Shown here: positions 2,148-48,420 of the stretch, piece after piece
How the letters are laid out: each line of letters starts with the position of its first letter
Position numbering within the stretch: position 1 is the first letter of the stretch
From: Thermoplasmata archaeon UBA61
GTDB lineage: Archaea > Thermoplasmatota > Thermoplasmata > Lutacidiplasmatales > UBA184
Reading direction: 5' to 3'
Length of the DNA stretch: 64,000 nucleotides
Assembly (NCBI GenBank): GCA_002503985.1
Contig: DASW01000007.1
Coordinates: forward strand, 108,435 to 172,434
Made by a program: the position numbers and the translations under genes
Notes under the pieces: generated by a model
The model's input: the letters and a program-made list of their open reading frames with translations, nothing else
Databases searched by the model: none
Told to the model about the DNA's origin: nothing

Positions 2148-2233
2148 CGTGCTGCTCTAGGAAGAGCGCGTCGCATCGCGTAGCAGTTCCGCGGGGCACA
2201 GCCGACGTCACGGCCCGAGCTCGGGTCGATGTC

Positions 2234-3028: not shown

Positions 3029-3030
3029 CG

Positions 3031-28956: not shown

Positions 28957-28966
28957 GAGGGACAGG

Positions 28967-30100: not shown

Positions 30101-30101
30101 G

Positions 30102-30884: not shown

Positions 30885-31255
30885 CCGGCGGAACAGGTGC
30901 CGGCCCCGTATTCGAATTCGAAGCGTTCGGCGCCGCCGTTGGATTGGCCGTCGTCTGCGGGGGGTTGTCGATAGTGTTCCCGCTCCTCATCGCGCCGACG
31001 GCCACGCTCGCCGCTCTCGCGTTGGCGGGATGGGTCTCGCGGGCCCGACGACGGGGTTCGCTCACCCGAAAGGGTCCGGGCACTGGGCCGGCGATCGCGC
31101 TCAGCGTTCTGGGGGCCGCTGCGATCTTGTTCCTCATTGCTCCCCCATCCCTCGCCGCCTTTCGTGGCCTCCTCCTTGCGGGGGGTCTCGTCCCGCTCTT
31201 CGCGACCGAGCGAACTTCGTCTCCGCTTCGCTCCCCGGTGTTCTCCCGTTCATGA
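30881..31255 (+). CDS. small membrane protein (3 TM)
   Basis: ATGA overlap at both ends. Hydrophobic throughout. Confidence 0.5.
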   Translation: MTGGTGAGPVFEFEAFGAAVGLAVVCGGLSIVFPLLIAPTATLAALALAGWVSRARRRGSLTRKGPGTGPAIALSVLGAAAILFLIAPPSLAAFRGLLLAGGLVPLFATERTSSPLRSPVFSRS

Positions 31256-32946
31256 CCCGATCCCTCCCTTCGAACGCGCCCGCCGAAGCGCCGACCTTTT
31301 GGCGGGTCGGCCGAAGCTACCGCGCACCGCTCCTGATTCGAAGTTTCCCCCCGGAAGTTCCCTTCGGGTTCCTTAGCCGCATTCTTCCGACCAATGAGAC
31401 GCTCGAGCTCTCGGTAGAGGCCCACCAGATCCCGTCTTCGAACGCGCTCGAGCTCCTGCATGGGGCGAGGGCCGTCGCCGAGGCGGAGCTCGCCACCGGT
31501 GGCAACGGAGGGCAGACGGCCGAGCTCGAGGTCGAACGTGCGAGTGCCGAGGAGCTGGGCCGCGCGGTCGCTCGGCGGACTCAGGAGCTCTGGAAGGTCG
31601 GAATACGCTTCGTGGTCCTAGCTCCGACCCGGCCGCACGTCGAGGCGAGGAGGATGCGCCTATCCGAGCGGCTCTCCGCCATCGGGTTTCGGTCACGTGT
31701 TCCTCGGTACGAGGTCCGCGAGGCGCTCCTCCCGCCGGACCTGTCCGCGTCCGAGCCACGGCCCTCGGGTTACTGGCACACCTTGCCGACCGATGGGCTC
31801 GCCTCGCTCTTCCCGTTCGGAGACGAGACGCTCTTGGAGCCGGGAGGGGTCCTCCTGGGTCTCGCGCTTTCCGACGCGAGCCCGGTATTCGTTGACCGGT
31901 GGTCCCACGCGAGCTACTCCTGGGGTATCTTTGGTACGACGGGGTCGGGCAAGTCGTTCGCGGCGGCGCTGACTCTGCTGAGGACTCGGTGGCTACGACC
32001 CGACACGTCCATCGCCATATTGGATCCTCTAGGGGAGTACTCGACCTTGGTCAAGGCTCTCGGAGGCTCGGTCATCCGTGTCGCGGACGGGGTTGGGGGG
32101 AGACTGAACCCGCTCGACCCGGTGACTACCCGGGGCGACCGACGGGAGAAGGCCGCCCGGGTCGGAACGATGCTTCGGGCCCTCTTCCCGAGCCTTCGAG
32201 ACGAGGAGGCGGCCGAGCTGGACGCGGCCGTGACCCAACTCTACGAGCGAGGACCAGACGTGCCGACCTTGCGAGACCTTCGGGACCGAGTGGTCGAGCG
32301 GGGCGGAGCGGGAACCCGCCTCGCGACCCTGCTTGAGGTGTTCCGGTCGGGTTCGCTGCGGGCGTTGGATGGACCGACGACCGCTCGCCCAACCGAAATG
32401 GTCGTATCGGTCGACTTCCAAGGAGTGCCCGATGACCAACTGCCGTTCCACCTCACGTACGTCCTCGATTGGGCGTACGGGCGGATGGCCGGGCTCACGG
32501 GCGGCAAGCTGCTCCTCATCGACGAGGCGCACCTTCTCGCGCGCCACGCGATGACCGAAGAGTTCCTGGACCGGGTCGTGCGTCACGTGCGACACTTCGA
32601 GGCAGGGCTACTGGTCCTTTCTCAAAGTCCGGAAGATTTTCTCGTCCGTCCGGCCGGAAGGTCTCTCCTCAGGAACTTGTACGCGACCGCGTTCCTACGC
32701 CTCCCGGAGGTGTCGGCCGAAGCGCGGACGTTCTTTGAACTCACGGACGCGGAGGGCGATTGGCTGCCGCGGGCGCGTCTCCCGAAGGAGACCGGGTACT
32801 CCGAATCGCTCTGGAGAGTGGGGGAATTACACCTGCCGCTCGCGATCGTAGCGTCGACCCCCGAGTACGAGTTCCTCGAAGCCAGCCTGGGTCGACCCAG
32901 GACGACTCCGGACGCCCCCGATGCCGCTCCAAAGGGAGGTTTATAG
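31252..32946 (+). CDS. VirB4/TrbE/CagE-like secretion/conjugation ATPase
   Basis: Walker A GIFGTTGSGKS and Walker B KLLLIDEAHLL. ~564 aa. Start overlaps the upstream stop (ATGA). Confidence 0.8.
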   Translation: MTRSLPSNAPAEAPTFWRVGRSYRAPLLIRSFPPEVPFGFLSRILPTNETLELSVEAHQIPSSNALELLHGARAVAEAELATGGNGGQTAELEVERASAEELGRAVARRTQELWKVGIRFVVLAPTRPHVEARRMRLSERLSAIGFRSRVPRYEVREALLPPDLSASEPRPSGYWHTLPTDGLASLFPFGDETLLEPGGVLLGLALSDASPVFVDRWSHASYSWGIFGTTGSGKSFAAALTLLRTRWLRPDTSIAILDPLGEYSTLVKALGGSVIRVADGVGGRLNPLDPVTTRGDRREKAARVGTMLRALFPSLRDEEAAELDAAVTQLYERGPDVPTLRDLRDRVVERGGAGTRLATLLEVFRSGSLRALDGPTTARPTEMVVSVDFQGVPDDQLPFHLTYVLDWAYGRMAGLTGGKLLLIDEAHLLARHAMTEEFLDRVVRHVRHFEAGLLVLSQSPEDFLVRPAGRSLLRNLYATAFLRLPEVSAEARTFFELTDAEGDWLPRARLPKETGYSESLWRVGELHLPLAIVASTPEYEFLEASLGRPRTTPDAPDAAPKGGL

Positions 32947-33379
32947 GGGCCCGCGCGCCGAACGAGGAACGTGGGCGCGGACGCGACGGTCGAAGGCCCG
33001 CCGCGCCGCCGGACGAGCTGGAGCCTGAAGACCATCGTCGAGGACGTTGCGGGTCGACCTATTGGGGAGCTCCAAGACCCCGGGCGACCGGTGCACCCGT
33101 ACCTGAAGGGAAAGGTCGTGGAGGTTCCTTCGGAACTGTCCACCTCCTCGAGGCCCCCCAGCGAATGGTACGACCCGGTCGACCGACTCTATCCCCCCTT
33201 GGTCGGCCCGACCGGGCGAGAGTTCCACGGACCGGACCACGAGAACCATGCCGACACGATTGACCGACACCGACCCCTCCCCGGTCACCTCCCGGGGCCT
33301 ACGCATCGCCCGGAGCGGCTCTACCTGCACTACCTATTGCTCCACATGGACCGGCTGAGCGCCTCGGCGCTCCAGTACC

Positions 33380-34258
33380 TCAAGCTCGCCGTGGACGAGG
33401 AGATCGCACACCGCGCCCAACCCGCGCCTTCATCCCCTTCGGGCCCCGCGCCCGAGCGGAAAGCGTGAACCCGCGCGCCAGCGCACTCGCCTCGAGGGCA
33501 CCGTAGGCGCCTCGGTCCCATTCCACGCCGATCGCGTCACGACCCCAGCGGCTCGCCGCCCAGAGCGTGGTGCCGGTCCCGGCGAACGGGTCGAGCACCG
33601 TGTCGCCCTCGACCGAGAACATCCGCACCAGCCGTTCGGCGAGCTCGGGCGGGAACGCGGCGCTCCTCCCCCGGGGCGAATCCTGGCGAGCGCCCCGGAT
33701 ATCGGTCCAGACCTGGCTGAACCAGCGGTCTCGCTCTTCGCGCGAGAACCGGCTGGCGAGCCGAGCGGCGTCGTGGGTCGGGAAACGCCGGAGCTTTCCC
33801 TTGCGGAAGAGGAGAACGTACTCGCAGTCGAGGGTCACGTAGGCGTTCGGTGGCAAGAACCCCGAGCCGAGGAACGCGTTGGGGCGGTTGGTAGGCTTCT
33901 TCCAGAGGATGTACGGGAGCGGAACCAAGCCGAGGCGAGTCGCCGACACGAACGTCTCGGCCGGGTTCGGCCAGAGGCGAAACTCCCCGTCCGCCGAGCG
34001 GAGCGCATCGCCGATGTTGACCGCGAGGATGCCGCCGGGGACGAGAACGCGTTGGCATTCGGCCCAGGCGTCGGCGAGCACCCGGAGCATCCCTGGGTAG
34101 TCGGTCGCTCCCAGGGCACGGAACAGTCCGTCCCACTGGGGGATCATGGGGTACGGAGGCGACGTGACGACCAGATGGACCGTTCCGCTCGCGATGCCGT
34201 TCAGCTTGCGCGCGTCGCCATGGATGAGCCGAACGGACCCCAGGGGTGGGCGCCGCAC
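33380..34258 (-). CDS. DNA methyltransferase (N6-adenine/N4-cytosine, beta-class; SPPY then DPFAGTGTT)
   Basis: Motif IV TSPPY and motif I VLDPFAGTGTT. Start is uncertain: GTG at 34258 is used here; the first ATG at 34489 would overlap the next gene by 180 nt. Confidence 0.7.
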   Translation of the reverse strand: MRRPPLGSVRLIHGDARKLNGIASGTVHLVVTSPPYPMIPQWDGLFRALGATDYPGMLRVLADAWAECQRVLVPGGILAVNIGDALRSADGEFRLWPNPAETFVSATRLGLVPLPYILWKKPTNRPNAFLGSGFLPPNAYVTLDCEYVLLFRKGKLRRFPTHDAARLASRFSREERDRWFSQVWTDIRGARQDSPRGRSAAFPPELAERLVRMFSVEGDTVLDPFAGTGTTLWAASRWGRDAIGVEWDRGAYGALEASALARGFTLSARARGPKGMKARVGRGVRSPRPRRA

Positions 34259-34309
34259 GCCGGGCCGAAGCCCTGGCACGGTTAATATCGCCCGCCCTCT
34301 CGGTAGGAC

Positions 34310-35614
34310 ATGCGGCTCGACCGACCGGTCCTCCAGGTCGCGCTCGACTTCGAGAACCTCTCCCGCGCCCTGCTCGCGGCACGCGAGGCGGTCGAAGGGG
34401 GAGCGGACTGGGTGGAGGCCGGGACCCCGCTCATCAAGAGCGAGGGGTTGGACGCGGTCCGCGAACTGAAGAAGGCATTCCCGGACCACCTGATCGTAGC
34501 CGACCTGAAGGTGATGGATACCGGGGCCTTCGAGGTCGAGATCGCTGCCAAGGCGGGGGCCGACATCGTCACGGTCCTAGGCGCCGCGGACGACGACACC
34601 ATCGCGGACGCGGTCCGGGGTGGAGAACTTTACGGAGCCGAGGTGATGGTCGACCTGCTCGGCGTCGCGGACCCGGTGGCTCGTACGAAGCGGGTCGCCG
34701 AGCTCGGCGCGGCGGCCGTCTGCTGGCACGTGGGGATCGACATGCAGATGACGGGGAAGACCCCGTTCGCCGTGCTCGCAGAGCTCGCGAAGGCATCCCC
34801 GATCCCGGTTGCGGTCGCCGGCGGTCTCACGAGCGAGAGCGTCGTGGAGGCGGTCCGCGCCGGCGCTCAGATCCTCATCGTCGGAGGAGCGATCACGAAG
34901 AGCCCCAAGATCGTCGAGGCGACCCAACGCATCGACGAGGCGATCCGGACCCAGAAGGCGGTCGCGAGTGAGCATTTCCGTCGCTACCGCAGCGAGGACC
35001 TCCGGGAGGCCTTTCTGAAAGTGTCCAGCCCGAACGTGACGGACGCGATGATGCGACAGGGGGCGATGCACGGCCTCCTCCCGCACCTCAAGGGCCCATC
35101 GGTTCGCGTGGTCGGGACCGCCGTGACCGTCGTTACCCGCGACGGGGACTGGGCGAAGCCGGTCGAAGCGATCGACCGAGCCGGGCCCGGTGACGTCATC
35201 GTGGTCGACGCCGGAGGCGGGACGACCGCGGTCTGGGGGGAGCTGGCCAGCTGGTCAGCGCACGGCCGTCACGTCGCAGGTGTCGTCGTCGACGGGGCCA
35301 TCCGGGACCTTGACACGATTCTCGAGATGGGATTCCCCGCGTTCAGCCGGTCGGTGAGCCCTAATGCTGGGGAGCCGAAGGGTCACGGCGAGATCGGGGT
35401 CGAGGTGACGGTCGGCGGCCAGCGGGTCCGCCCCGGCGACTGGATCGTGGGAGATGTGAGCGGGGTCGTGGTCGTCCCGCGCGAGCGGGCGCAGGAGATC
35501 GCGAACCGGGCCCTGGACGTGCTCGAGCATGAGAACCGTGTCCGGGAGGAAATCCAGCGCGGCTCCACCCTAGGCGCGGTGCAGAAGCTCGAGCGCTGGG
35601 AACGGGTCGGGTAG
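34310..35614 (+). CDS. fusion of HPS/OMP-decarboxylase-like (3-hexulose-6-phosphate synthase family) and RraA-like domains
   Basis: The N-terminal half is a HumpS-like TIM barrel (VALDFENL...VEAGTPLIK). The C-terminal half is an RraA/MenG-like fold. Confidence 0.75.
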   Translation: MRLDRPVLQVALDFENLSRALLAAREAVEGGADWVEAGTPLIKSEGLDAVRELKKAFPDHLIVADLKVMDTGAFEVEIAAKAGADIVTVLGAADDDTIADAVRGGELYGAEVMVDLLGVADPVARTKRVAELGAAAVCWHVGIDMQMTGKTPFAVLAELAKASPIPVAVAGGLTSESVVEAVRAGAQILIVGGAITKSPKIVEATQRIDEAIRTQKAVASEHFRRYRSEDLREAFLKVSSPNVTDAMMRQGAMHGLLPHLKGPSVRVVGTAVTVVTRDGDWAKPVEAIDRAGPGDVIVVDAGGGTTAVWGELASWSAHGRHVAGVVVDGAIRDLDTILEMGFPAFSRSVSPNAGEPKGHGEIGVEVTVGGQRVRPGDWIVGDVSGVVVVPRERAQEIANRALDVLEHENRVREEIQRGSTLGAVQKLERWERVG

Positions 35615-35646
35615 CGCGTCCCTGAGTTGCTCCAAGGTGGCGCGAC

Positions 35647-36444
35647 TTACACCGTGCTCAGCGCCTTGAGCAGCTCGGACTGCATCCATAACGAGTCCGT
35701 CTGCGATCGAATCCGTGCCTGCTGGTGTCGGTTGGGCCCTGTCCAGCTCAACGTCCAGGGCAGGGGGTACTCGACGTCCCACAGCACAAGACCCTCCGGG
35801 TCTACTGTCGGCAAGGTGAGGCGGACATCGCCCTTGAGCGCGGCTTCGAGCCGCGCGAGCGTCAAGCGGCCGGCATCGTATTCCCGCAATGCCCCGATGA
35901 TCTTGCGGACCATCCCCCAGACGAATGAGGGGGCGCGGACTTCCACGATGAGTCCTCCCTCCGTTGGGGCCACCGTGACAGATTCCACCAACCGCAGGAT
36001 GGGTACTCCCGCTGGGAGACCTCGCCCGAACGACCGGACGTCAATCGCTCCGGAGAAGAGGCGCGCCGCGCGTTCCCATCGATCAGGGTGGTGCCCTCCG
36101 ATCGGTTCGAAGTAGCGATAAGTCCGCCGCACGGCTCCTCGCACTCGGAACTCCTCGGGGACCGGGGTTGCGGCCGAACAAATCAGTTCCGTGGATATTC
36201 CGTTTAGAGAACGCAGCAGAACCCGGCTCGGAAGCTCGGTCGACACCACAAAGGCGTTCGCCCGCGCGCTAACCCCCCGATCGGTCCGGCTCGCCACGGC
36301 GACCCTCGCTGCCTCCGCAGAAGGAGTCACTCCAAGACGGACAAGTCCACGGAGAAGCTCACTCTCTACCGTACGGAGACCCGGTTGGCGGGCCCATCCG
36401 GCAAACTCGCGGCCATCGTATCCGAACCGAACGAGCCACCGCAT
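35647..36444 (-). CDS. truA: tRNA pseudouridine(38-40) synthase
   Basis: RTDRGVSA catalytic motif. Confidence 0.85.
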   Translation of the reverse strand: MRWLVRFGYDGREFAGWARQPGLRTVESELLRGLVRLGVTPSAEAARVAVASRTDRGVSARANAFVVSTELPSRVLLRSLNGISTELICSAATPVPEEFRVRGAVRRTYRYFEPIGGHHPDRWERAARLFSGAIDVRSFGRGLPAGVPILRLVESVTVAPTEGGLIVEVRAPSFVWGMVRKIIGALREYDAGRLTLARLEAALKGDVRLTLPTVDPEGLVLWDVEYPLPWTLSWTGPNRHQQARIRSQTDSLWMQSELLKALSTV

Positions 36445-36494
36445 GCGTAATCCCTTCCGCGGAGCACCACTGACGACCAGTCGGGCCGCAACGA

Positions 36495-36580
36495 AGAAAG
36501 TTGCTTGACAACCCGTGTCAAATAGACGCCTATTGTAATCTATATACTCTACGGCAGATTAGTATAAATCCCCTGTAAAG
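36495..36580. promoter_or_regulatory. divergent truA / pst promoter region with TATA-like boxes and a perfect inverted repeat
   Basis: TTGACAacccgTGTCAA at 36501-36517. TATATACTC at 36531 and TATAAATC at 36553, the only AT-rich stretch in the area. Confidence 0.4.
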
Positions 36581-36689
36581 TTCGTTCCTCCGATGTCGAC
36601 CCGGACGGCTAGCCGCGTTGTGGACGGGCTTTCCCTCTAAGGTCGACGGAACCGACACAGTCCGTGAACAGAAGAACGGCAGGAGAAAA

Positions 36690-37922
36690 ATGAGTAGCAG
36701 CCAAGCAGGAACGAGTGCGCCACCGACAAGTGAGGCCGGAACTCCGGCAATCCAACGGCAAAAACGAGGCCGTGGCCCGATGATCGCGGTGGTTGCAGTG
36801 ATCGTCGTCGTCATCCTCGTGCTGGTCGTCGGGTGGTCGGCGGGATGGTTCAACAGTAGCAGCAGCAGCTCCAAAGGAACGTCGGGATGCACGCTCCCTA
36901 GTGTGGTCCAACTCAAGGGCGAAGGGTCGACTCTGGTCGCTCCCTTGATGGACCAGTGGGCGACATCCTACTGGAACGGAGCAGCCGTCACGTATGACTC
37001 CGCAGGGAGTTCGGCGGGTATCCAAGCTATCACGGCGAAGACCGTGGATTTCGGAGCCAGCGATGCTCCTCTCACCTACGCTCAACGTGTGGCCGCGCCG
37101 GGGATTCTAACGATTCCCGAGTCGGCCGGCGGTGTCGTCCCGATCTACAACTTGCCCGGCGTATCCGCGGACCTGAACTTCAACGGGAGCGTCCTCGCCC
37201 AGATGTTTGACGGCGGGATAACGAACTGGAACAACTCGGCTCTCCAGACCCTGAACCCCCACGTCGTCCTACCGGTCCAGACCATCTTCCCCGTCCACCG
37301 GACGGGCGGAAGCGGAACCACGTTCATCTTTACGAGCTTCATGAGCGTGGAGAACGCCGCGTGGGCCCATACCTACGGTAAGAACACAGCCTGGCCCACC
37401 AACATCACGATCGGAGGCGGAGCCTCGGGGAACGGCGGCGAAGCGTCCACGGTTCAAACTACGCCGTATTCGATCGGTTACGTCGACCTGAACTACGCGC
37501 TGAACGCGGGGTCCGGGGTCGGTGTCGGGAACGTCCAGAACCCCAAGGGGGACTTCATCCATGCGACGGTGGCCAACACCGAGTCCGCGCTTGTCGACTC
37601 GAGCGTCGTGCTTCCCGCGGGAACGGGTGACTGGTACAACGTCTCGTTGCTCAACGCACCGGGCGCGAACGACTACCCGATCACGTCCCTTACGTACGTG
37701 CTAGTCTACCAGAACCTGAACGCGTTCAGCAGCTACACGCTGACGAACGCGGAGAATGTGGTCGACTTCTTGCACTGGATCGTGGCGGTCGGACAGAATG
37801 ACTCGGCGCTGCTCTACTACGTCCCCTTGACCTCGGCCATCGTGAGCGCTGACATCGCGTCCATCAACTCGATTACCTTTGGCACGCAGACCATCCCAGT
37901 CTGCGTCCCGAGCTCGAGCTAG
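36690..37922 (+). CDS. pstS: phosphate ABC transporter substrate-binding protein
   Basis: AGGAGAAAA RBS. N-terminal TM/lipobox-like anchor with a Ser-rich linker. PstS-like fold. Confidence 0.85.
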   Translation: MSSSQAGTSAPPTSEAGTPAIQRQKRGRGPMIAVVAVIVVVILVLVVGWSAGWFNSSSSSSKGTSGCTLPSVVQLKGEGSTLVAPLMDQWATSYWNGAAVTYDSAGSSAGIQAITAKTVDFGASDAPLTYAQRVAAPGILTIPESAGGVVPIYNLPGVSADLNFNGSVLAQMFDGGITNWNNSALQTLNPHVVLPVQTIFPVHRTGGSGTTFIFTSFMSVENAAWAHTYGKNTAWPTNITIGGGASGNGGEASTVQTTPYSIGYVDLNYALNAGSGVGVGNVQNPKGDFIHATVANTESALVDSSVVLPAGTGDWYNVSLLNAPGANDYPITSLTYVLVYQNLNAFSSYTLTNAENVVDFLHWIVAVGQNDSALLYYVPLTSAIVSADIASINSITFGTQTIPVCVPSSS

Positions 37923-37957
37923 TCGAGAGGCCGGGCGGACCCACCGAGGTTCTCCGG

Positions 37958-38962
37958 ATGGAGCCGCCAACCCTTTCCAATTCTTCTTCTTCCTCGACAC
38001 CGGTTATTCCCCGCAGGGCACCCCGGCGGTCTCGACCGACGTCCCGGTGGCCCGACCGGGTGTTCTTTGGCATCGTCACCGCCGTAGGGGTCTCGGTCAT
38101 TGGTCTCGCGGCGGCGATCGTCGGGATCCTCGCCTACGGCTCCCGCTATTCGATCCAGGTCTTCGGCTTCTCGTTCCTCTGGGGGACGGTCTGGAGCCCC
38201 ACTACCAACGTCTTTGGGGTGGTGCCGGTCGTCGTCGGAACGCTACTCACGAGCGCCATCGCCCTCCTCATCGCTATCCCGCTCGCCCTAGGCTCGGCGA
38301 TCTTCCTCACGACCCACGCGCCGCGATGGCTCCGCGGTCCGGCGGGTACCGCGGTCGAGCTCCTCGCGGCAGTTCCCTCCGTGATCTATGGGCTCTGGGG
38401 AATCTATGTGGTCCATCCCTACATGGCGTCGACCATCGAACCCGGATTGAAGCAGTACCTCGGGTTCACCGGCCTCTTTGACGGCACGCCGATCGGGCTC
38501 GACGTGCTCACCGCGAGCGTGATCCTCGCGATCATGGTCATCCCTACCATCTGCGCCATTAGCCGGGACACGCTGGCCGCGGTCCCCCAGGCCCAGAAGG
38601 AGGCCGCCCTCAGTCTGGGCGCTACCGACTGGGAGACAACCCGCGTTGCCATGATCCCCTACGCCCGATCTGGGATCATCGGCGGCATTATTCTCGGACT
38701 CGGACGAGCGCTGGGCGAAACGATGGCCGTGACCATGGTGATCGGCAACGCTGACCGGATCCCGACTTCCCTCTTGTCGCAGGGTCAGACGATTGCGAGC
38801 CTCATCGCGAACGAGCTGCTCAGTAACAGCGGACCTCTCCAGGAGTCCGCCATCCTCGAGGCCGGTCTCATCCTACTGGTCATCGCTCTCTCGGTGAACA
38901 TCATCGCCCGGCTCCTGGTGTGGCGCGTGCTCAAGGGTGGGGGAGGGGGAATCGTCGAATGA
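37958..38962 (+). CDS. pstC: phosphate ABC transporter permease
   Basis: 6 TM. EAA-like loop region. Confidence 0.9.
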   Translation: MEPPTLSNSSSSSTPVIPRRAPRRSRPTSRWPDRVFFGIVTAVGVSVIGLAAAIVGILAYGSRYSIQVFGFSFLWGTVWSPTTNVFGVVPVVVGTLLTSAIALLIAIPLALGSAIFLTTHAPRWLRGPAGTAVELLAAVPSVIYGLWGIYVVHPYMASTIEPGLKQYLGFTGLFDGTPIGLDVLTASVILAIMVIPTICAISRDTLAAVPQAQKEAALSLGATDWETTRVAMIPYARSGIIGGIILGLGRALGETMAVTMVIGNADRIPTSLLSQGQTIASLIANELLSNSGPLQESAILEAGLILLVIALSVNIIARLLVWRVLKGGGGGIVE

Positions 38963-39840
38963 GGAAATTCGACCGCTACGCTCGCCGCAAGCTCTTGAGC
39001 CAGATCATTGCCGTGCTCACTGGGCTCTGCGTCCTAGCCGTCCTCTACCCACTCGTGAGCATCGTGTACGAGTCGTTCCTTCAAGGAGGGGCCGTTCTCT
39101 TCCAGGCCCAGTTCCTCACGTCGGAGGCACCCAACGCCTGTTCGGCAATCTCGTGCAAGACCGTCGGAATCGGACCCGCCGTTCAGGGGACGCTGATTGT
39201 CGTCGGCCTCGCCGCGGCCATCTCGGTCCCGGTGGGCATCCTCGCCGCCATCTTCGCGTCCGAGTACCGCGCTCGGGGCCTCGGGCGGGCGGTCAGCTTT
39301 ATCGCGGACGTCCTCACCGGAGTACCCTCCATCATCATGGGGGCGTTCATCTACGGTTACTTCGTCATCTACTACCCGCAAATCGCCCTCAGCTTCTACA
39401 CGGGCGCACTCGCTCTTTCCGCCATCATGATCCCGATCGTCGTGCGGACGACCGAGGAGGCCCTACGAGTGGTCCCCAACTCCATCCGGGAAGCCGCACT
39501 GGCCCTCGGCATCTCGAAGTGGAAGGCCACGCTTCGAATTGTCCTGGTCGCCTCGTTGCCGGGCGTCGCCACAGGGGTCCTGCTCGCGGTCATGCGAGCC
39601 GCGGGCGAAGCGGCCCCGCTTCTCTTTACCCTGGGCTACTCCACGCTCTGGTTCCAGGGCTTCAACCACCCGGGGGCGAACCTACCGATCCTGATCTACA
39701 CCTTCGCTCTGAGCCCGTACTCGAACCAGGTTAAGGTCGCCTGGGGCGCCACGCTTTTCCTCCTCATCCTCATCCTTGTCGTGAATGTGATTTCGCGACT
39801 GGCGATCCATCGGATGCGGGTCCGGATGGGAGGAATCTAG
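38959..39840 (+). CDS. pstA: phosphate ABC transporter permease
   Basis: ATGA overlap with pstC. 6 TM. Confidence 0.9.
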   Translation: MRKFDRYARRKLLSQIIAVLTGLCVLAVLYPLVSIVYESFLQGGAVLFQAQFLTSEAPNACSAISCKTVGIGPAVQGTLIVVGLAAAISVPVGILAAIFASEYRARGLGRAVSFIADVLTGVPSIIMGAFIYGYFVIYYPQIALSFYTGALALSAIMIPIVVRTTEEALRVVPNSIREAALALGISKWKATLRIVLVASLPGVATGVLLAVMRAAGEAAPLLFTLGYSTLWFQGFNHPGANLPILIYTFALSPYSNQVKVAWGATLFLLILILVVNVISRLAIHRMRVRMGGI

Positions 39841-39846
39841 AGTACC

Positions 39847-40602
39847 ATGAACCCAACCAAGCTCAAGGTCGACCACCTCACTGCCTACTACAGCGAGAAA
39901 GCCGCGATCACCGATGTCTCCATCGAGTTCCCCGAACGAGCCGTCAGCGCCATCATCGGACCGTCTGGCTGCGGAAAGTCGACGTTGATCCGCTGCCTCA
40001 ACCGTATGCACGAGACCGTCGTCCGGACCCGGGTGGAAGGGCAGGTCCTGCTCGACTCGGAGGATATCTACCAGCTTGACCCCGTGCGGGTGCGCCGACG
40101 GATCGGGATGGTCTTTCAGAAGCCAAATCCGTTCGTCACGATGTCCATCTACAACAACGTGAGCGCCGCGCTTCGATTCAACGGACGACCTTCGAGGGAG
40201 GAGACCGACCGGCAGGTGGTGCGCAGCCTCCAGCAGGCGGCCCTCTGGGACGAGGTCAAGGAACGGATCGACGCGCCCGCGGTCTCCCTCTCCGGCGGCC
40301 AGCAGCAGCGGCTCTGCATCGCGCGGGCACTTGCGGCGGAACCCGAGGTCCTTCTCATGGACGAGCCGTGCTCGGCCCTGGACCCAATCGCCACCGCGAA
40401 GATCGAGGAACTGATCAAGCAGTTGAAGACGGAGTACACGCTCGTGATCGTCACGCACAACATGCAGCAGGCGGCCCGCGTCGCCGATTACACCGCGTTC
40501 ATGTACCTCGGAAAGCTCATCGAGTTCGGACCGACCGAGGAGTTGTTCGAACGGCCGAAGGATTCTCTCACGGAAGCGTACATCACAGGAAGGTTCGGAT
40601 GA
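39847..40602 (+). CDS. pstB: phosphate ABC transporter ATP-binding protein
   Basis: Walker [10 protein letters not shown], signature LSGGQQQR, Walker B LLMDEP. Confidence 0.95.
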
Positions 40603-41360
40603 ACAAAGATCCCCTCGCCGACACAGGACGACCCCGCGGTTACGACCTCGAGATCCGTCAGCTGAAGGCTCGCGCGGTGGCGATGGGAGAATGGGCGTTC
40701 GCGATGGTCCGGGACGGATGGCGAGCGTTCTGCGGGGGGGACCTCGTGGCCGCGCAGGCCGTTCTCGACCGAGGTACCGAGCTCGACCGGCTCGATGAGG
40801 ACATCGAGCATGCAGCCATCGCCTTCCTCGTCCTTCGCCAGCCCACGGCCGGCGACCTGCGGACCGCCGCCGGTTTGCTGAAGATCACCACGCATCTTGA
40901 CCGGATCGGTCGGCTCGGGTTCGACATGGCCCGAATCACCACCGAGGGCGCTCCCAGTGAACCCGCGGACCTCCGAGAGGTTCTCGAACGGATGGACTCC
41001 GTGGTCGAATCGATGGTCAGCCAATGCCTCGAGGCCTTGGGACACGACCGAGCGGACCTCGCTCGCGACCTGTTCCGCAGGGACGATGAGGTCGACCAGC
41101 TCCATCGCGATGCCAACCGGATTATCCTACGGGAGCTGAACGCGAAAACCAGCAATACGACCCGGGTCGCGGACGACCTACTCGTGGCGCGTCATTTCGA
41201 GCGAATCGCCGACAATGCCTGCAAGGTTGGGGAGAAGACGGTCTATGCACTCAGGGGTCAACGACGGTCGGAGTACCTGCCCCGCCACCGCTACATACCC
41301 TACACCCTCGAGGGACCGACGTCGACACCGAGAACGACAGATGATTCGCCTCCCGTCTGA
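40599..41360 (+). CDS. phoU: phosphate uptake regulator
   Basis: ATGA overlap with pstB. Two PhoU repeats. Confidence 0.85.
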
Positions 41361-41489
41361 CGGCGACTTTGCCTTCGATTAACGAGGCCGTCTGTTTCGA
41401 ACTTCCCTGATTCGTGGTCTCGGGTACACCTTGACCATCGTTCACCCGGCGGTGAACGTACATATTCTCCTTGCAACAGACATCGGACT

Positions 41490-41864
41490 GTGCCCTACAA
41501 GGATCCTGCTAAGCGACGTGCGTACAACCTGGCCTATCGGCGAGAGTACTATCGGAGTCACAAGGTCGAATACCTCGCCAAGAACCGGGTTCGGAAGAGG
41601 GCGGCCCGACAATTCCTCTCAGGTGTGAAGCGACGCAATCCTTGCGCCCGATGCGGAGAATCCGACTTGCGATGCCTCGACTTTCATCATCGAGGTGGTC
41701 ATGAGAAACTCGCAGGGTTGTCTATCATGGCAACGGACGGGGCTGCGATTGCCTCCCTGGAAAGGGAACTGCGCAAATGTATCGTCCTTTGCAAGAACTG
41801 CCACGCGAAGGAACACTTCAAAGGGACCGGCGATTCAGGGAAACGGCCGGGGACGCTCCCGTAG
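41490..41864 (+). CDS. free-standing HNH endonuclease
   Basis: Motifs CARCG...DFHH...CKNCH. GTG start. The 3' end overlaps the tRNA 5' end by ~10 nt. Confidence 0.75.
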   Translation: MPYKDPAKRRAYNLAYRREYYRSHKVEYLAKNRVRKRAARQFLSGVKRRNPCARCGESDLRCLDFHHRGGHEKLAGLSIMATDGAAIASLERELRKCIVLCKNCHAKEHFKGTGDSGKRPGTLP

Positions 41865-41954
41865 TCTAGTCCGGTCAAGGATAGAGGGCCTTCGAGGCGC
41901 CCCATGGGGCGTCGAGGAAACCCTCCAACGCGGGTTCGAATCCCGCCGGGAGCA
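41855..41954 (+). tRNA. intron-containing tRNA, probably tRNA-Glu(UUC); ~25-nt intron at about 41895-41919
   Basis: 7-bp acceptor stem GCTCCCG/CGGGAGC. D-loop AGTCCGGTCAA. T-arm GCGGG-TTCGAAT-CCCGC. Discriminator A. Anticodon stem GAGGG/CCCTC is interrupted by a 25-nt insert that folds as a relaxed bulge-helix-bulge. The spliced loop would be CCTTCGA. Confidence 0.6.
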
Positions 41955-41997
41955 TCCCAAACATGGTTTAATACCGCCGTACTGACATGCCGAAACC

Positions 41998-43302
41998 GTG
42001 CCTCGGTCTCCGATGGGCGGTATCGAGATCCGCGAGTTCCTTTCCCTTCCGAGCCTCAGGGCTTGGTATGAGAACGTAGCTCGAGGGTCACGGATCACGG
42101 CCGACGTCTACTCTCGTTCCCTACGCCTATTCTGTCACCTGACAGAGAAGGACCCATCCTCGCTGCTTCGACTTGCGGAGCCACAGCTCCATTCAATCCT
42201 GCTCGAGTTCGTGACCGCCGAGGAGAAACGGAAGCAGGCGGGCAGCTCGACGGCGACCCACCTCAAGGCGGTGAAGTCGTGGCTCGCGTTCAACGGTATC
42301 CGCATCACCCGACCCGTCAAGGTCCGTCGCGTGCAGGAGACGCCGACACTCGCGGAAGAGCGTACCCCCACCCAAGACGAGCTGCGCCGAGTGTTGCTCG
42401 CAGCGACCGCTCGAAACCGAGTATCCTGCGCGATGATGGCCTTCTCGGGCGTTCGTCCAGAAGTCCTCGGGAGTTACCTCGGCGATGACGGTCTCCGCGT
42501 CAAGGACCTCCCGGAGTTGCGGATCCGCGGCTCCGAGGTGCGTTTTGAGCGAACCCCGGCGACGGTGGTGGTCCGCTCCACTCTCTCCAAAGCCGGACAC
42601 CGATACTTCACGTTCCTGGGGGAAGAGGGGTGCGGGTACGTCGCCGAGTACCTCCGCTCGAGAGTCAAGGAGGGAGAGACCCTCGGTCCCGAGTCCGACA
42701 TCGTTCACGCTGAGGCCGGCCACAGCACCCTGCGTGGAGGAAACACGTTCATCCGGACAACCAACGTCGGGGATGGAATCCGTCTCGCCCTACGGAAGGG
42801 GGGTTTCCCGTGGCGTCCGTACGTGCTTCGTGCCTACTTCGATACCCAGTTGCTGCTTGCCGAGTCGAAGGGCAAGGTCGCCCACGACTACCGAGTGTTC
42901 TGGATGGGGCACAAGGGATCGATGGAGGCCCGGTACACGACCAACAAAGGACGCCTCCCGCAGAATCTCGTCGACGACATGCGCGATGCATACTGTCGGT
43001 GCGAACCGTTCCTGTCGACAGTCCCCTCACGAAACGAGCAAGATGCCCAAGCAAAGATGGCGAAGACCATGTTGATGGGCCTTGGCTACACGGAGGCAGA
43101 GCTCGCCGCGATTGACTTCGAGAATCTGGACGTCACGTTATTCCAAGACCTCGTCACGAAGAAGATGGTCTCCTCAGGTGCGGGTGCAAAGCAGCAGCTC
43201 GTAGACGCGGGCGATCTTCCCCGCTACCTCGAACAGGGCTGGACTGTCGTCACCGCGGTCAATGGACACCAAGTCGTGCTGAATCCACCGGCGTCACGAT
43301 AA
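41998..43302 (+). CDS. tyrosine recombinase/integrase (phage integrase family)
   Basis: C-terminal catalytic region with R...HxxR (HDYR)...Y. 434 aa. Lies immediately 3' of the tRNA. Confidence 0.85.
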   Translation: MPRSPMGGIEIREFLSLPSLRAWYENVARGSRITADVYSRSLRLFCHLTEKDPSSLLRLAEPQLHSILLEFVTAEEKRKQAGSSTATHLKAVKSWLAFNGIRITRPVKVRRVQETPTLAEERTPTQDELRRVLLAATARNRVSCAMMAFSGVRPEVLGSYLGDDGLRVKDLPELRIRGSEVRFERTPATVVVRSTLSKAGHRYFTFLGEEGCGYVAEYLRSRVKEGETLGPESDIVHAEAGHSTLRGGNTFIRTTNVGDGIRLALRKGGFPWRPYVLRAYFDTQLLLAESKGKVAHDYRVFWMGHKGSMEARYTTNKGRLPQNLVDDMRDAYCRCEPFLSTVPSRNEQDAQAKMAKTMLMGLGYTEAELAAIDFENLDVTLFQDLVTKKMVSSGAGAKQQLVDAGDLPRYLEQGWTVVTAVNGHQVVLNPPASR

Positions 43303-43648
43303 GCCGGAACCATCCGACCACCTTCGCCGCATACTCCTGACGGGGGATCTCGTCGGGTTCGCCAAGGACCAGGATCCGCAGAGGGTGGGAAGGGTCGAGA
43401 CTCTGGGCCATCGCCTTCATCTCGCGCAGGGAGACCAAGAGGTCCGCACCCCCGAAGCGCACGAGGGATGACGACCGGGAGGCAGTAGTGAGGGCTCCCG
43501 CCCTGGAAATCGGTGTTCCGCGGGCCATCCCGGTCGCCACCGAAGTCGTCGAGCGAGTCCTGCCATAAGAATCGAGTTTCCCCGATGAAGCGTGGAAGCT
43601 GCTCGGCGTCGAATCTCCGTTCAGATTCCGCCGGGTGAAGTAGCCCAA
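43259..43648 (-). CDS. hypothetical protein (weak)
   Basis: ORF only. Overlaps the integrase 3' end. Confidence 0.2.
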   Translation of the reverse strand: MGYFTRRNLNGDSTPSSFHASSGKLDSYGRTRSTTSVATGMARGTPISRAGALTTASRSSSLVRFGGADLLVSLREMKAMAQSLDPSHPLRILVLGEPDEIPRQEYAAKVVGWFRLIVTPVDSARLGVH

Positions 43649-43675
43649 TAACCCCGAATCGGCGCTCGCCTATGC

Positions 43676-46600
43676 ATGGACAGCGGACCCGTCCATCGCG
43701 AACTGTTGCTGCCGACGCCGACCAAGGACCCGCCCGAAATCCCGCCGCTCGTCTGGGCCTCGTCGACCCCGTTCTGGCTGGAGATCCACCGAGAGACGAC
43801 CGGACGAGTGCGATACTCGCTCGGTTCCAGCTCCGTATCGGACCTCGAGGCGATGCTCGCCTGCCTCGAGAGCACGCGCCCCCGCTTGACGGGAGGCGCG
43901 CCGATCGAATGCTTCGCCGCGACGCTCGTTCCGGAAGGGGTCTATGCTCGGGCCGTACCCGTCCAGAAGCACCACCACCTGCCCATCCAGGTCCAACCCA
44001 AGGTGGACAGCGCGAGCTTCCTTCTGCGGACCCTCGGTTCGCGGACGCTGCGCGACCACGACGTACTCCTGCAGCTCCTATTTCGAAGGGTCCGAGGCTG
44101 GGAATCGAGTTTCTTCTCGCCCCTCTACGATACGGTCGCCCAGCGCCAGGCCCACCAGCTGAGGGGCCAGATGGAGGTTCGCCAGGGCGAAGCCGCCTAT
44201 CACGTCGAGCTGAGGACGAACATCAAGGGACCACAGCCGGAGGAGGCGCTGACCGCGCTCGGTGCCTGGCTGGGGCAGTGGACGACCACTGGGGGAGTGC
44301 CCTGGAGGCGGTGGAAGGTCATCCGCCCCAGGGCGGAGTGGGGATTCCACGCGGCTCTGGCCAGCCACGACCTCCGCCGATACTCGAGCAGGAAGGCCCG
44401 TCGGAACGTTTCCGGCACGGAGCTCGCGCATCTGCTCAGCATACCTTGGGCCACTCACCACCCGGAATGCTCCTACGCCGGGGCGCCTCGTAGCCAGCCG
44501 GCGCCAGAACTCGTCGTGCGTCCGTCCTCTTCCCCCAGCTCCCCCGCCGACGCGCGGCTCATGGTTGGGGTCAGCGGCTCTCGCCGGGTCACACTTCCGC
44601 GGGAATGGAACCACGTTGCCATACTTGGCAGGACCCAGTCGGGTAAGTCGACTCTCGCCCTCAATCTCGTCCTCCAGACGCTGAGAAAACACCCCAACTC
44701 CACCGTCGTCGTGATCGAGCCCACCGGGACGCTGGTCGAGGGGATCGTGTCGCGACTTCCCCGCGAAATCGCCTTGGAGACCGTAGAGATCGACCCCGCC
44801 CACGCCACCTTCCAGCAGGGTGACGCGACCATGGTCTCGGTCCCCCTCTCGTTGCTCCTGCCGCCGGAGCGGGCGGACGAATTGCCTTCGGTCCGCGATC
44901 GCTGGTCGGAGGCGCTCGCGGGCGACCTCCTCGCCGCGATCCGGAGCGCCTGGGGGGAGGAGAGCATCGGGGGCCGGGCCGAATTCGTCCTGCGCGCACT
45001 GGTGCAGGGCCTCGCACTCACGCCCGGCTCGAACCTGGTCGACGCCTACCACATCCTCACTTCGAAAACCGCGCTCCAGCGGTTTGTCAAGTCCGCGCCG
45101 CCCGGGCCGCTGAGAGACTTCCTCGAACACCACCTCCCTCGCCTCGACTACACGTTCACGATGTCGTCCCTCGACAAGGTCGGTAAGGTTGCAACCAATT
45201 CCCTCCTCCGGATCGCGCTCTGCCAGCGGAACCACGCGGTCTCGTTCGACCGGCTGCTCGGGCATCGCCTGCTCCTCCTGAACCTCTCCAAGGCCGCCCT
45301 GGGAGCGGACGGGGCGAACTTCCTGGGGGCGATCTACCTAACCCAGCTCTGGGCCGCCGTTCAGCGGAGCGGACGGCCGGATCGGCCGGTCTACCTGGTC
45401 CTCGACGAGGTCCACAACTACGCCGTCCCGGCGCTCGCCGACATGCTGAGCGAGGGGGCGAAGTTCGGGCTCCACGTCGTGGCCATCACCCAGTACCTCC
45501 ACCGGGTGCCGCTGAGGGTCCGGGCGGCCCTCCTGGGGAACGTCGACGCTTGGTTGCTCTTCTCCCTCGGGACGGAGGACATGGACGACGCGTGGAAGAT
45601 CGTCAACGGGGAGACCCACGGGTGGCTACCTCAGGACCTCGTGGACGGGCTCCGGCCTTACGAAGTCGCGATGGCGGTGTCAGGAGACCTTCTGAAGCTG
45701 GGAACGCGCCCCAGCCCTCCTCCAGACGCGCAGGCGAACGACCTGAGGGACGTCGTGACGACGAGCTCTCGAAGGTATGCCCAGCCCGAGGACTCGGAGG
45801 CGTCGCCCTGGCTTGTGGGTCAGGAAATGGTTGAAGTCATACTCAGGGGGCTATCGATTCAGCCCAAGACACGCGAGGAGCTAGCCGCCGAGACTGCGCT
45901 GGCAGCAAATCGACTGGACGGAGCGCTCAGCGTCTCCATCACCTCTGGAGATATTGAACAAGAGCCGACTCACGGGAAGTTCCGCCTGACTTCCCGCGGA
46001 GACTTCCACCTCCGGGCGCTCGAGTCGCGGAGGAACGAGGGGTCGGACCACTCTGACCTGCTAGCGGACGGCGTAGCCCCTCTTCAGGGTCTCCGGCCAC
46101 GGGTCACGGCGCAGGGTGGAGTGCTCCCTCAGCCGGACGGCGTATTCGAATGGAACGGGCAGACCTACAATCTGGAGGTGGAGACGAGCAACTTGGTCAA
46201 GCACCCGGAACAGGTAGTCCGCAATCTTCGGAAGGCTCTGGCGATGGAACGACCGTGCCTCTTTGTAGTTCCGGACCGGGAAAGCGCCGGACAGCTCTTC
46301 CAAATCCTGGCCCGAGCCGCCCCCGAGGTTGCGCTTTGGAGGGAGTTCGGGCTGATGTGGAAGGAAGGGCCGGGAAAGTTCCTTCCCTACATCTCGGGCT
46401 CCGGGCAGCCATGGAGCTTCTTGATCGATGGAAGGGGGTCCGCGGGGGGTGTGGTTCCACCGAGCACAATCTTTCCCCAGGCCATCAGTTCGGCGGATTC
46501 GGACCTTTCCCGAGTGCACCTTCGTGTCAAACAACTCTTGGCCGAAGGCAAGTCAGAGGCGACCTTGCAAGACTTCGCCGATCTCTTCGGTCCTGGCCAG

Positions 46601-46819
46601 GGCGGTGTCCTCGAACGGCAGCGCCTTGGGATGGCCCTCATCGCCCTTGGTGTGAAGAGCCGAAGGGTCCGCACGGCGGACGGCCAGGAGCGCGTCTACG
46701 ACATCGGTCAACTGGCAGATTCGGTTGGCAGCTCACAAGACGGGGCTACGAGGCCCGCGGACCACAGTCGCAACGAAGGCGACAACGGGAACGATTCCGG
46801 GGTCGGACCGAACAACTGA
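43676..46819 (+). CDS. large HerA/FtsK-superfamily (DUF87-type) ATPase, candidate conjugative coupling/DNA-translocating ATPase
   Basis: Walker A GRTQSGKST and Walker B YLVLDEVHNY. 1047 aa with long N- and C-terminal extensions. Confidence 0.75.
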   Translation: MDSGPVHRELLLPTPTKDPPEIPPLVWASSTPFWLEIHRETTGRVRYSLGSSSVSDLEAMLACLESTRPRLTGGAPIECFAATLVPEGVYARAVPVQKHHHLPIQVQPKVDSASFLLRTLGSRTLRDHDVLLQLLFRRVRGWESSFFSPLYDTVAQRQAHQLRGQMEVRQGEAAYHVELRTNIKGPQPEEALTALGAWLGQWTTTGGVPWRRWKVIRPRAEWGFHAALASHDLRRYSSRKARRNVSGTELAHLLSIPWATHHPECSYAGAPRSQPAPELVVRPSSSPSSPADARLMVGVSGSRRVTLPREWNHVAILGRTQSGKSTLALNLVLQTLRKHPNSTVVVIEPTGTLVEGIVSRLPREIALETVEIDPAHATFQQGDATMVSVPLSLLLPPERADELPSVRDRWSEALAGDLLAAIRSAWGEESIGGRAEFVLRALVQGLALTPGSNLVDAYHILTSKTALQRFVKSAPPGPLRDFLEHHLPRLDYTFTMSSLDKVGKVATNSLLRIALCQRNHAVSFDRLLGHRLLLLNLSKAALGADGANFLGAIYLTQLWAAVQRSGRPDRPVYLVLDEVHNYAVPALADMLSEGAKFGLHVVAITQYLHRVPLRVRAALLGNVDAWLLFSLGTEDMDDAWKIVNGETHGWLPQDLVDGLRPYEVAMAVSGDLLKLGTRPSPPPDAQANDLRDVVTTSSRRYAQPEDSEASPWLVGQEMVEVILRGLSIQPKTREELAAETALAANRLDGALSVSITSGDIEQEPTHGKFRLTSRGDFHLRALESRRNEGSDHSDLLADGVAPLQGLRPRVTAQGGVLPQPDGVFEWNGQTYNLEVETSNLVKHPEQVVRNLRKALAMERPCLFVVPDRESAGQLFQILARAAPEVALWREFGLMWKEGPGKFLPYISGSGQPWSFLIDGRGSAGGVVPPSTIFPQAISSADSDLSRVHLRVKQLLAEGKSEATLQDFADLFGPGQGGVLERQRLGMALIALGVKSRRVRTADGQERVYDIGQLADSVGSSQDGATRPADHSRNEGDNGNDSGVGPNN

Positions 46820-47072: not shown

Positions 47073-47336
47073 TTAGGGGAAAAACGCTCGCATATCCTTT
47101 CGCGAGACCTCAAGGATCCTCGCACCTGTCACGGCCAGAACAATCCCGACCGCCAGGATCGCGAAGAACGCTCCCACGTTGAACCCGGACGCATCGGGAA
47201 GGCATCCCGGGTCCGCGACGCACGCGTTGAAAACCGCGAGGGCTTCCACGCCCGCCGCGATGAAGATCAGACCGACCGCGAGAGTGACCTCTCCCGCGCC
47301 ACGGAACGCGAAGGCGGCTCGAACGTTCCCCGCCAT
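47073..47336 (-). CDS. small membrane protein (2 TM)
   Basis: Hydrophobic segments. Lies directly downstream of the DUF932-like gene. Confidence 0.35.
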   Translation of the reverse strand: MAGNVRAAFAFRGAGEVTLAVGLIFIAAGVEALAVFNACVADPGCLPDASGFNVGAFFAILAVGIVLAVTGARILEVSRKDMRAFFP

Positions 47337-48218: not shown

Positions 48219-48420
48219 CGTTGTCCTCGGTCACGAGGGACAACGAGGGAGCCTCGCCAGAGGACTAGGTCCCTCGAGACGCGAGGGCACGGCTCGCGAG
48301 GTCAGCAATCTGCGGCACCCGCCTCAGGGTTCAGGGCGTGCTCCGCGTCCTCTATAGAAACAACGGGAACTCCGGACCGGAGCTGTCCTTCCGTGACCCC
48401 AAAGCACGCATAGAACTACG

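Follow-up and report, generated by a model that had tools for sequence, protein, structure and literature searches.

Two ATPases of the kinds used by conjugation systems lie 11 kb apart on the same strand in the genome of Thermoplasmata archaeon UBA61 (assembly GCA_002503985.1, contig DASW01000007.1, positions 108,435 to 172,434). This stretch of 64,000 nucleotides (nt) is referred to below as the window, and all coordinates without a locus label are positions within it. The first is a VirB4-like ATPase (31252-32946), which belongs to a chromosomal gene cluster, and the second, which we call ATPase2, is a protein of 1047 amino acids (aa) encoded at 43676-46819 in an island that begins at a transfer RNA (tRNA) gene. 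Between the two ATPases are truA, pstSCAB-phoU and the intron-bearing tRNA gene itself. An earlier note, made from the sequence of this DNA alone, had described the pair in these terms, and the positions of both genes, the motifs quoted for the second ATPase and the genes between the two were all confirmed. The window has a G+C content of 60-70%, its proteins recur across many peat and soil metagenomes, and all of the genomes compared with it are metagenome-assembled genomes (MAGs).

To our knowledge archaeal conjugation is poorly understood, with only VirB4/VirD4 pairs being recognised and no relaxase known, and the host-owned archaeal derivatives of conjugation systems described so far, Ced and Ted, are crenarchaeal. 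Here a conjugation-type operon of reduced content, in which VirB4 is split, is a core chromosomal locus of an abundant clade of soil and peat Thermoplasmata, and a matching family of coupling ATPases travels apart from it on small integrase islands. Our reading, to which we give a probability of about 70%, is that the window contains two separate genetic entities, each with one half of an archaeal conjugation-type system.

The chromosomal VirB4 cluster

Public gene calls and our own analysis place the VirB4-like ATPase in a cluster of seven genes (26321-33468) with the order g750, g135, g377, g260, g124, VirB4 and g165. A synteny scan using one genome per species returned 80 loci, all from Thermoplasmata MAGs and with UBA184 included. 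Essentially every locus shares the order DUF885, YjgF, fibrillarin, the cluster, methylase, OMPdc/RraA, truA and pst, and the context of the VirB4 operon is the same whether or not the island is present. The identity of VirB4 drops from 91% to 52% across these species, roughly tracking that of fibrillarin (94% to 57%), and in the scanned loci the cluster comes without an integrase, a coupling ATPase or a relaxase. The VirB4 operon is a fixed, vertically inherited locus of the soil and peat Thermoplasmata clade, and its constant context without these three is the signature of a domesticated apparatus.

The VirB4-like ATPase itself (plus strand, 564 aa) corresponds to the middle and C-terminal domains of VirB4 according to both model and structure matches. 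Of the more than 100 homologues listed, nearly all share this length, and for this reason the start at 31252 was preferred over a longer open reading frame (ORF) beginning at 31030. The Walker A motif GTTGSGKS (G228-K234) and the Walker B motif LLLIDEAH (D424, E425) are both invariant in 17 orthologues. Matching NCBIfam-type models include conju_CD1110 (E 1.5e-40), VirB4_plasma (2.3e-26), VirB4_CagE (7e-14) and TraC (4e-13), and the solved VirB4 C-terminal domain (PDB 4ag5) is matched with E 8.9e-14. All of the model scores are under the equivalog cut-offs, so the protein is a member of the superfamily and not of those subfamilies. The alignment of the CD1110 VirB4 profile to the 564-aa protein does not begin until profile position 203. 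It is g260 (30102-30884, plus strand), a 260-aa protein with one transmembrane (TM) segment and a soluble domain, that provides the N-terminal domain of VirB4. When 68 orthologues of g260 were compared with residues 1-320 of full-length VirB4, hhalign gave a probability of 96% and an E value of 2.6e-9 over 242 columns; VirB4 is therefore split in this lineage.

The two parts of VirB4 are separated by g124 (30881-31255, plus strand), which encodes a small membrane protein with 2-4 hydrophobic segments. It is called as a gene in public assemblies, its detection by tblastn is confined to close relatives, and it is possibly VirB3-like. Upstream of g260 is g377 (28967-30100, plus strand), a TrbL/VirB6-like polytopic membrane protein with at least 6 hydrophobic segments, for which 55 orthologues were compared by hhalign with the TrbL_3-bearing proteins of the more distant loci L172 and L173 (probability 93%, E 3e-7, 190 columns). 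The preceding gene, g135 (28549-28956, plus strand, 135 aa), encodes a candidate pilin of the VirB2/TrbC type. Its architecture, a variable leader followed by a nearly invariant 75-aa arrangement of helix, basic loop and helix, is pilin-like, and its matches to the Pfam family T4SS_pilin are all sub-threshold. In one distant species (L092:7247-8803) the pilin-like and TrbL-like genes are found in a single ORF, which could reflect either a true gene fusion or an error of assembly.

The first gene of the cluster, g750 (26321-28573, plus strand), encodes a surface protein with Ig/PKD-like repeats that has weak matches to Big_13/Ig_3 and to Rrf2. TM prediction gives it a signal or TM segment at the N-terminus, a TM segment towards the C-terminus (648-669) and, after this, a short tail in the cytoplasm. 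It is syntenic yet variable, being 24-73% identical between species, and was undetected in L065, L071, L077 and L087. The C-terminal end of the gene (28300-28573) encodes the TM helix and then a winged-helix-like cytoplasmic tail of about 80 aa with the weak Rrf2 match, a topology that is unusual for an adhesin. The last gene, g165 (32971-33468, plus strand), is the first of those that lie between the two ATPases and encodes a conserved soluble protein of 165 aa. It is syntenic in essentially all 80 loci and has no family match in scans of the Pfam/NCBIfam type.

ATPase2 and its relatives

ATPase2 (plus strand; Walker A GRTQSGKST, Walker B YLVLDEVHNY) had been labelled as a HerA/FtsK-type (DUF87) ATPase. 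It is indeed a P-loop ATPase, but the HerA part of the label did not hold, as the DUF87/HerA score is under the Pfam cut-off (19.1 versus 23.2 bits) and the only Pfam family passed is TrwB_AAD_bind (24.4 versus 20.5 bits). NCBIfam gives weak TraD and VirD4-like matches. Searching 1.84 billion representative proteins with a profile of the ATPase2 core returned 9779 relatives, and among 56 distant relatives that were scanned TrwB_AAD_bind was found in 54, TraG-D_C in 44 and T4SS-DNA_transf in 22. The AlphaFold model of ATPase2 (pLDDT 82.6) has TrwB as its top Foldseek match (E 6.5e-12), and a TrwB-type nucleotide-binding domain with its all-alpha insert is present in the core. By sequence and predicted fold the core of ATPase2 is that of a TrwB/VirD4-type coupling-protein ATPase. 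The sole HerA-named NCBIfam match is to an anti-phage HerA, at 16.8 bits with a cut-off of 800, and a HerA identity was rejected. Membership of a NurA-associated HerA clade, which the earlier note had raised as evidence against a conjugative role, is likewise not what was found: the protein is TrwB-like, and its neighbours include no NurA, Mre11 or Rad50.

The architecture built around this core is an unusual one for a coupling ATPase, being soluble and multi-domain and including a nuclease-like module. Residues 1-290 form an N-terminal alpha/beta domain, which is soluble in the AlphaFold model, and the TrwB-like ATPase with its helical insert occupies about 300-690. The C-terminal part contains winged helices at about 713-780, with weak MarR-type matches, and at about 943-1010. 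Between these is an alpha-beta-beta-alpha-beta module (about 790-905) with invariant D821, E834, E836, Q846, N850 and K853, whose motifs and topology suggest that it is PD-(D/E)xK-like. Searches of the PDB and Pfam with the C-terminal region found no nuclease family and gave weak winged-helix matches only. Over 37 aligned full-length members of the family, down to 43% identity, about 170 residues are invariant and the Walker motifs are intact.

The note had suggested a search for loci in which homologues of both ATPases are contiguous, and such loci were found. Gene context was looked up for five full-length proteins of the ATPase2 family that are more distant, and four of them (L172, which is from a Nitrososphaerota MAG, L173/L174, L177 and L178) are directly downstream of a full-length VirB4 of 858-892 aa. 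These operons have the layout T4SS_pilin, small ORFs, TrbL_3, VirB4, a small OB-fold-like or unassigned protein and then the ATPase2-like gene, and a divergent giant PKD/Kelch surface protein is encoded near them. Compared with the window genes by phmmer, the VirB4 of L172 gave 3e-70 and the ATPase2 homologue of L173 gave 4e-227, with 47% identity over 736 residues. Judged from these sequences, the VirB4 and ATPase2 families are a genuine conjugation pair, in agreement with the proposal that the window holds both ATPase classes of such systems. An identity matrix nevertheless points to separate histories for the two. The chromosomal VirB4s are 52-66% identical to one another, but their identity to the VirB4s carried by elements is only 29-35%. 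The coupling ATPase of L173, for its part, is 43-47% identical to the island ATPase2s, equal to the most divergent island copies among themselves.

The fifth distant member (L175/L176) lies among SNF2/PLD, HATPase_c_3 and methylase genes. This setting would suit a different role, in which ATPase2 is a defence ATPase that has nothing to do with DNA transfer: an effector of the DndH/MADS/HerA type, equipped with a nuclease domain and encoded in a defence island linked to a tRNA gene. The conserved nuclease-like module (D821/E834/E836/K853) is in keeping with such a role, as are a PADLOC match of ATPase2 to mad8 (7e-16) and the type I restriction-modification system that adjoins a second ATPase2 copy. 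However, the VirB4 protein matches mad8 about equally (1e-13), so that the mad8 match is generic, and no dnd or mads partner genes were found among the window and island proteins scanned with Pfam. PADLOC was run on the integrase, ATPase2 and the DUF932 protein of the island, and neither the integrase nor the DUF932 protein had a defence-family match. The profiles of ATPase2 point to TrwB, TraG and TraD, four of the five distant relatives are in operons of pilin, TrbL and VirB4, and ATPase2 is consistently linked to an integrase; we therefore regard a defence function as very unlikely.

The island at tRNA-Glu

The left edge of the island is a tRNA-Glu(UUC) gene (41855-41954, plus strand, 100 nt, Rfam 49.5 bits). 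It was missed by ARAGORN, which fits the presence of an intron, and intron-less orthologues were typed as tRNA-Glu(UUC). The intron is about 26 nt long here and is missing from the gene in some close relatives (L005:6377-6455, L016:20184-20262, L089:14428-14502), so that it is polymorphic within the clade. The tRNA gene is followed by a gene for a tyrosine-recombinase-like integrase (41998-43302, plus strand, 434 aa), which has weak matches to Phage_int_SAM_1 and XerC/XerD and the motifs LRAYF...MGH...RY. This gene starts 44 nt past the tRNA in the window, and the distance ranges from 44 to 90 nt over the window, L016, L017, L079 and L084. The integrase is found after tRNA-Glu in 4 of about 20 related species with enough flanking sequence, it is absent or truncated in the relative L005, and it is beside ATPase2 in 20-23 other loci. 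The island is accessory. As had been proposed, ATPase2 lies inside an integrase island and the VirB4 operon lies outside it; only some related species carry the island.

The neighbours of ATPase2 within 10 kb were surveyed in 76 metagenomic loci, and not one of these (0/76) carries VirB4, g135, g377 or g260. Recurrent neighbours are the integrase, o87 and an o72-type protein, together with variable cargo such as NHL-repeat and DUF932 proteins. In the window o87 (47073-47336, minus strand) encodes a small protein with two TM segments and is convergent with ATPase2; it is found in 34-38 loci, usually 12-950 nt past ATPase2. The small conserved protein o72 (49409-49627, minus strand) belongs to a family present in 26-35 loci and has a paralogous segment within o301 (58383-59288, minus strand), via repeats D1/D3. 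A second ATPase2 paralogue, 68% identical, is found in the same genome and on the same contig, about 116 kb upstream (locus L011, positions 226-3378 of JBEJZZ010000001.1, assembly GCA_050018495.1). Its neighbours are an o72-like gene, small ORFs and the type I restriction-modification system already mentioned, and there is no integrase near it in the stretch seen.

These surveys bear on the proposal that one ancestral element was split. In that case a recent rearrangement would have placed core genes inside a single conjugative element and so parted the VirB4 module from the coupling ATPase, which would fit both the contiguity of the two families in other archaeal elements and the distance of only 11 kb, on the same strand, that separates them here. 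The core context is nevertheless the same in 80 species, most of which have no integrase at the tRNA site, VirB4 is near none of the 76 ATPase2 loci, and the second copy of ATPase2 is 116 kb away. In addition the chromosomal VirB4s form their own clade, with the low identity to element-borne VirB4s given above, and the tRNA and integrase mark an insertion boundary that separates the two genes. We consider a split of this kind extremely improbable. We read the 11-kb spacing as incidental, because the tRNA-Glu integration site happens to be about 9 kb downstream of the fixed operon.

Two conserved non-coding elements are associated with the islands. The first is a structured element of 85-95 nt (43463-43545, minus strand), hereafter the 85-nt element, which is located upstream of ATPase2 and is specific to the islands. 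Copies are found in about 40 ATPase2 loci (for example L110:9783-9873, and L121:1601-1694 and 3410-3509) and are 70-92% identical even where the ATPase2 proteins are 43-60% identical, with sharp borders and with indels that are not multiples of three. The closing stem of 14 bp is 94% paired, compared with 40-59% in slid controls, and shows some compensatory changes as well as an invariant G.U wobble on the minus strand. The inner hairpins have GNRA and UUCG/UACG loops, and the consensus fold of the plus strand is poor. The element has no Rfam match and is not a tRNA. It is probably a minus-strand non-coding RNA, or it could be a DNA site, either oriT-like or a recombination site. A second, partial copy is present in some loci. 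The overlapping ORF o89 (43259-43528) is probably not a gene, as its conserved N-terminus is the translated 85-nt element, which elsewhere is fused to unrelated frames. Some islands also have a second family of tyrosine recombinases, of about 355 aa and on the minus strand (L101:8155-9228, L122:8808-9884, L127:4900-5979), the frames of which start inside the 85-nt element; this recalls archaeal integrases that have their attachment site within int.

The second element is a 54-nt intergenic repeat with three copies on the same strand (48419-48472, 49786-49839 and 51427-51480) and the core CCCGTCGCKCGCGAGCGTCTCG. Every copy is 50-200 nt upstream of a minus-strand island gene, and exact copies of the core are restricted to other ATPase2 islands. 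A diverged copy is located directly past tRNA-Glu in L014, a relative with no integrase at that site. The repeat could serve several genes as a common operator or promoter, or it could mark the junction between cassettes. Both elements are absent from chromosomal VirB4 loci and from complete conjugation modules, and they are candidates for cis-acting sites of the island.

The rest of the island holds cargo genes. The DUF932 protein (47343-48218, minus strand; Pfam 1.4e-12, TIGR03299) belongs to a plasmid/phage-type family and is present in 7-9 islands. The NHL-repeat protein (49890-51374, minus strand) represents a type found in 18-22 islands and is matched by the giant PKD protein adjoining the L172 conjugation module (E 9.6e-13). 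Further along are genes for a 189-aa membrane protein (51503-52072, minus strand) and a 2121-aa protein without a family match (52069-58434, minus strand), and at the far end of the island is a tandem pair of IS110-family transposase genes (60183-61277 and 61471-62559, minus strand). Short repeats flank the IS110 genes (59232-59328, 59947-60001, 62582-62624). No relaxase was matched among the island proteins in general family scans. The possibility that the island is a provirus was also considered and rejected, as viral contigs contain no close ATPase2 homologue and the island has no capsid or terminase families.

Interpretation, related systems and the genes between

If the window does hold two separate entities, the chromosomal operon would be a domesticated conjugation apparatus, similar to Ced and Ted, that builds a pilus or channel for the exchange of DNA between cells. 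It would supply the VirB2-like pilin candidate, the TrbL/VirB6-like channel protein, the split VirB4 and the variable Ig-like surface protein. The island at tRNA-Glu would be a mobilizable derivative of a conjugative element that has lost the channel genes but still has its integrase and coupling ATPase, as well as some cargo that resembles adhesins. Its core would consist of the tyrosine recombinase, the 85-nt element, ATPase2, the small membrane protein and the small o72-type protein. The island may excise by means of its own recombinase, and ATPase2 could bind, and perhaps cut, the island DNA and feed it to a VirB4-type channel supplied in trans. The source of that channel could equally be the host operon or a co-resident conjugative element. 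The data show the gene identities, the split of VirB4, the fixed synteny of the operon, the accessory status of the island and the contiguity of the two ATPase families elsewhere; we infer pilus formation, DNA exchange, the excision and transfer of the island, the nuclease role and any physical interaction of the two ATPases.

The use of the host machine in trans by the island, which was the second possibility raised in the earlier note, appears compatible with all of the findings. A more specific version, in which ATPase2 would be a combined DNA-processing and coupling protein that recognises the 85-nt element and drives island DNA through the VirB4 pilus machine of the host, we hold to be unlikely. 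Were ATPase2 to use the host machine, a host-owned apparatus would be exploited by minimal islands that have only an integrase and a coupling ATPase, and this would offer a reason why a relaxase has never been found in archaeal conjugation.

Several results weigh against a host apparatus paired with a mobilizable island. The assignment of g135 as a pilin is weak and is made tentatively from its sequence. No hydrophobic segment above threshold is found across the 1047 aa of ATPase2, unlike canonical coupling proteins. The window VirB4 is only about 30% identical to the VirB4s that accompany ATPase2 relatives and ATPase2 is 47% identical to the coupling ATPase of L173, so the evolutionary partner of ATPase2 is the VirB4 of conjugative elements and not that of the host operon. 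Searches for att direct repeats in the window and in L005/L006, by k-mers, mismatch search and local alignment, yielded only a chance 12-mer, and the window showed no right end of the island, which may lie beyond it. Because there is no att repeat and the right end is undefined, recent mobility of the island is read from its presence and absence only. The flanks of empty sites in relatives did not match the window except at the diverged copy of the intergenic repeat.

The failure to find att repeats would also suit an island that is the decaying remnant of a conjugative element. ATPase2 would then transfer nothing, the operon would have an unrelated role such as adhesion or protein secretion, and the two would not interact. 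The IS110 copies within the island, the absent or truncated integrase of L005, the remoteness of the chromosomal VirB4 from element-type VirB4s and the resemblance of g750 and the island cargo to adhesins are all in line with this. ATPase2 is nevertheless full-length, with intact Walker motifs and the roughly 170 invariant residues in 37 members. Conservation from island to island extends to its small neighbours, to the 85-nt element and to the intergenic repeat, a pattern unlike that of decay. On balance decay of this kind seems quite unlikely.

The Ced system of Sulfolobales and the Ted system of Thermoproteales are crenarchaeal DNA-import systems (PMC9905601, PMC11868833). In gene content the operon resembles them in being a chromosomal, host-owned and reduced apparatus with a VirB2-like pilin (tentative here), a VirB6-like protein and a VirB4-like ATPase, and in having no relaxase, coupling protein or integrase. 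As in Ced, VirB4 is distributed over several polypeptides, with CedB and CedD covering the VirB4 N-terminal domain there and g260 and the 564-aa protein being the parts here. Unlike Ced and Ted, the operon belongs to the phylum Thermoplasmatota and is linked to an Ig-like surface protein and a conserved methylase. Unlike Ced, the ATPase scores 139 bits with CD1110 and 40 bits with CedD, for which the cut-off is 600, making the monoderm-type conjugative VirB4 closer. Orthology to the ATPases CedB/CedD or TedB is not supported.

The conjugative plasmids and integrative conjugative elements of archaea (Sulfolobus pNOB8/pING, Thermococcus pT33-3 and thaumarchaeal elements) have a signature pair of VirB4 and VirD4/TraG and no recognisable relaxase (PMC12857230, PMC6563490). 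The relatives at L172-L178 share this layout, with an ATPase2-family gene right after VirB4, whereas the pair in the window is divided between a fixed operon and an island without a channel. Bacterial integrative mobilizable elements are islands with an integrase at a tRNA site that keep DNA-processing or coupling functions, lack channel genes and depend on a helper. The island is similar to them in its integrase at a tRNA target, its variable presence and its lack of channel genes. It differs in that no relaxase or oriT was identified in it, in that the candidate helper is possibly the host operon and not another mobile element, and in the form of its coupling ATPase, a soluble protein extended by winged-helix and nuclease-like domains. 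Like TrwB of R388, ATPase2 has a RecA-like nucleotide-binding domain with a helical insert. Unlike TrwB, to which it is about 15% identical, it has no N-terminal TM helices and instead has a soluble N-terminal domain of 290 aa and about 350 extra aa at the C-terminus.

A split arrangement has been listed before in Cuniculiplasma (Thermoplasmatales) by Golyshina et al. 2016: one locus holds a VirB4 cluster (arCOG05340, arCOG04034, arCOG05369 and a membrane protein), and the gene for a TraG/TraD/VirD4 ATPase (arCOG04816) lies elsewhere in that genome (PMC5155288). The listing is an annotation note that analyses neither synteny and mobility nor the split VirB4 and the domain architecture of the coupling ATPase (PMC5155288). 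Its layout resembles that of the window when compared by annotation, not orthology. The chromosomal type IV secretion system of Patescibacteria is clade-wide and relaxase-less, has VirB2-like pilins, derives from the monoderm conjugation class and has a host function (PMC12102498). Unlike the window system it is bacterial and tied to an epibiotic lifestyle, and no island-borne coupling ATPase is described for it. The order-level paper on Lutacidiplasmatales/UBA184 makes no mention of secretion or conjugation. Because the split layout of Cuniculiplasma was already listed, though without analysis, the window system is not categorically new but is a variation on a known theme, a Ced/Ted-like domesticated apparatus together with a mobilizable island. 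Its parts are candidates for euryarchaeal DNA exchange, for archaeal mobilizable islands and for the DNA-processing step that is still missing from the picture of conjugation in archaea.

The genes between the two ATPases begin, after g165, with an N6/N4 methylase (33380-34258, minus strand), which runs towards g165 and shares sequence with the 3' end of that gene. Wherever a locus extends far enough, the methylase is in essentially every case syntenic beside the VirB4 cluster. No restriction partner was found for it in the window, where PADLOC was run on the methylase, the ATPases and a few neighbours only, so that we take it for what appears to be an orphan methylase of the core genome with a link to the apparatus. 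It is followed by an OMP-decarboxylase/RraA fusion (34310-35614), truA (35647-36444, minus strand) and the genes pstS, pstC, pstA, pstB and phoU (about 36780-41360), with phoU at 40599-41360 on the plus strand. The last ORF before the island (41490-41864, plus strand) has no tblastn match in loci L001-L178. Its product of 124 aa has a zinc ribbon and an HNH-like motif (CxxC...DFHH...CxxCH), and the last 10 nt of the ORF are also the first 10 nt of the tRNA gene.

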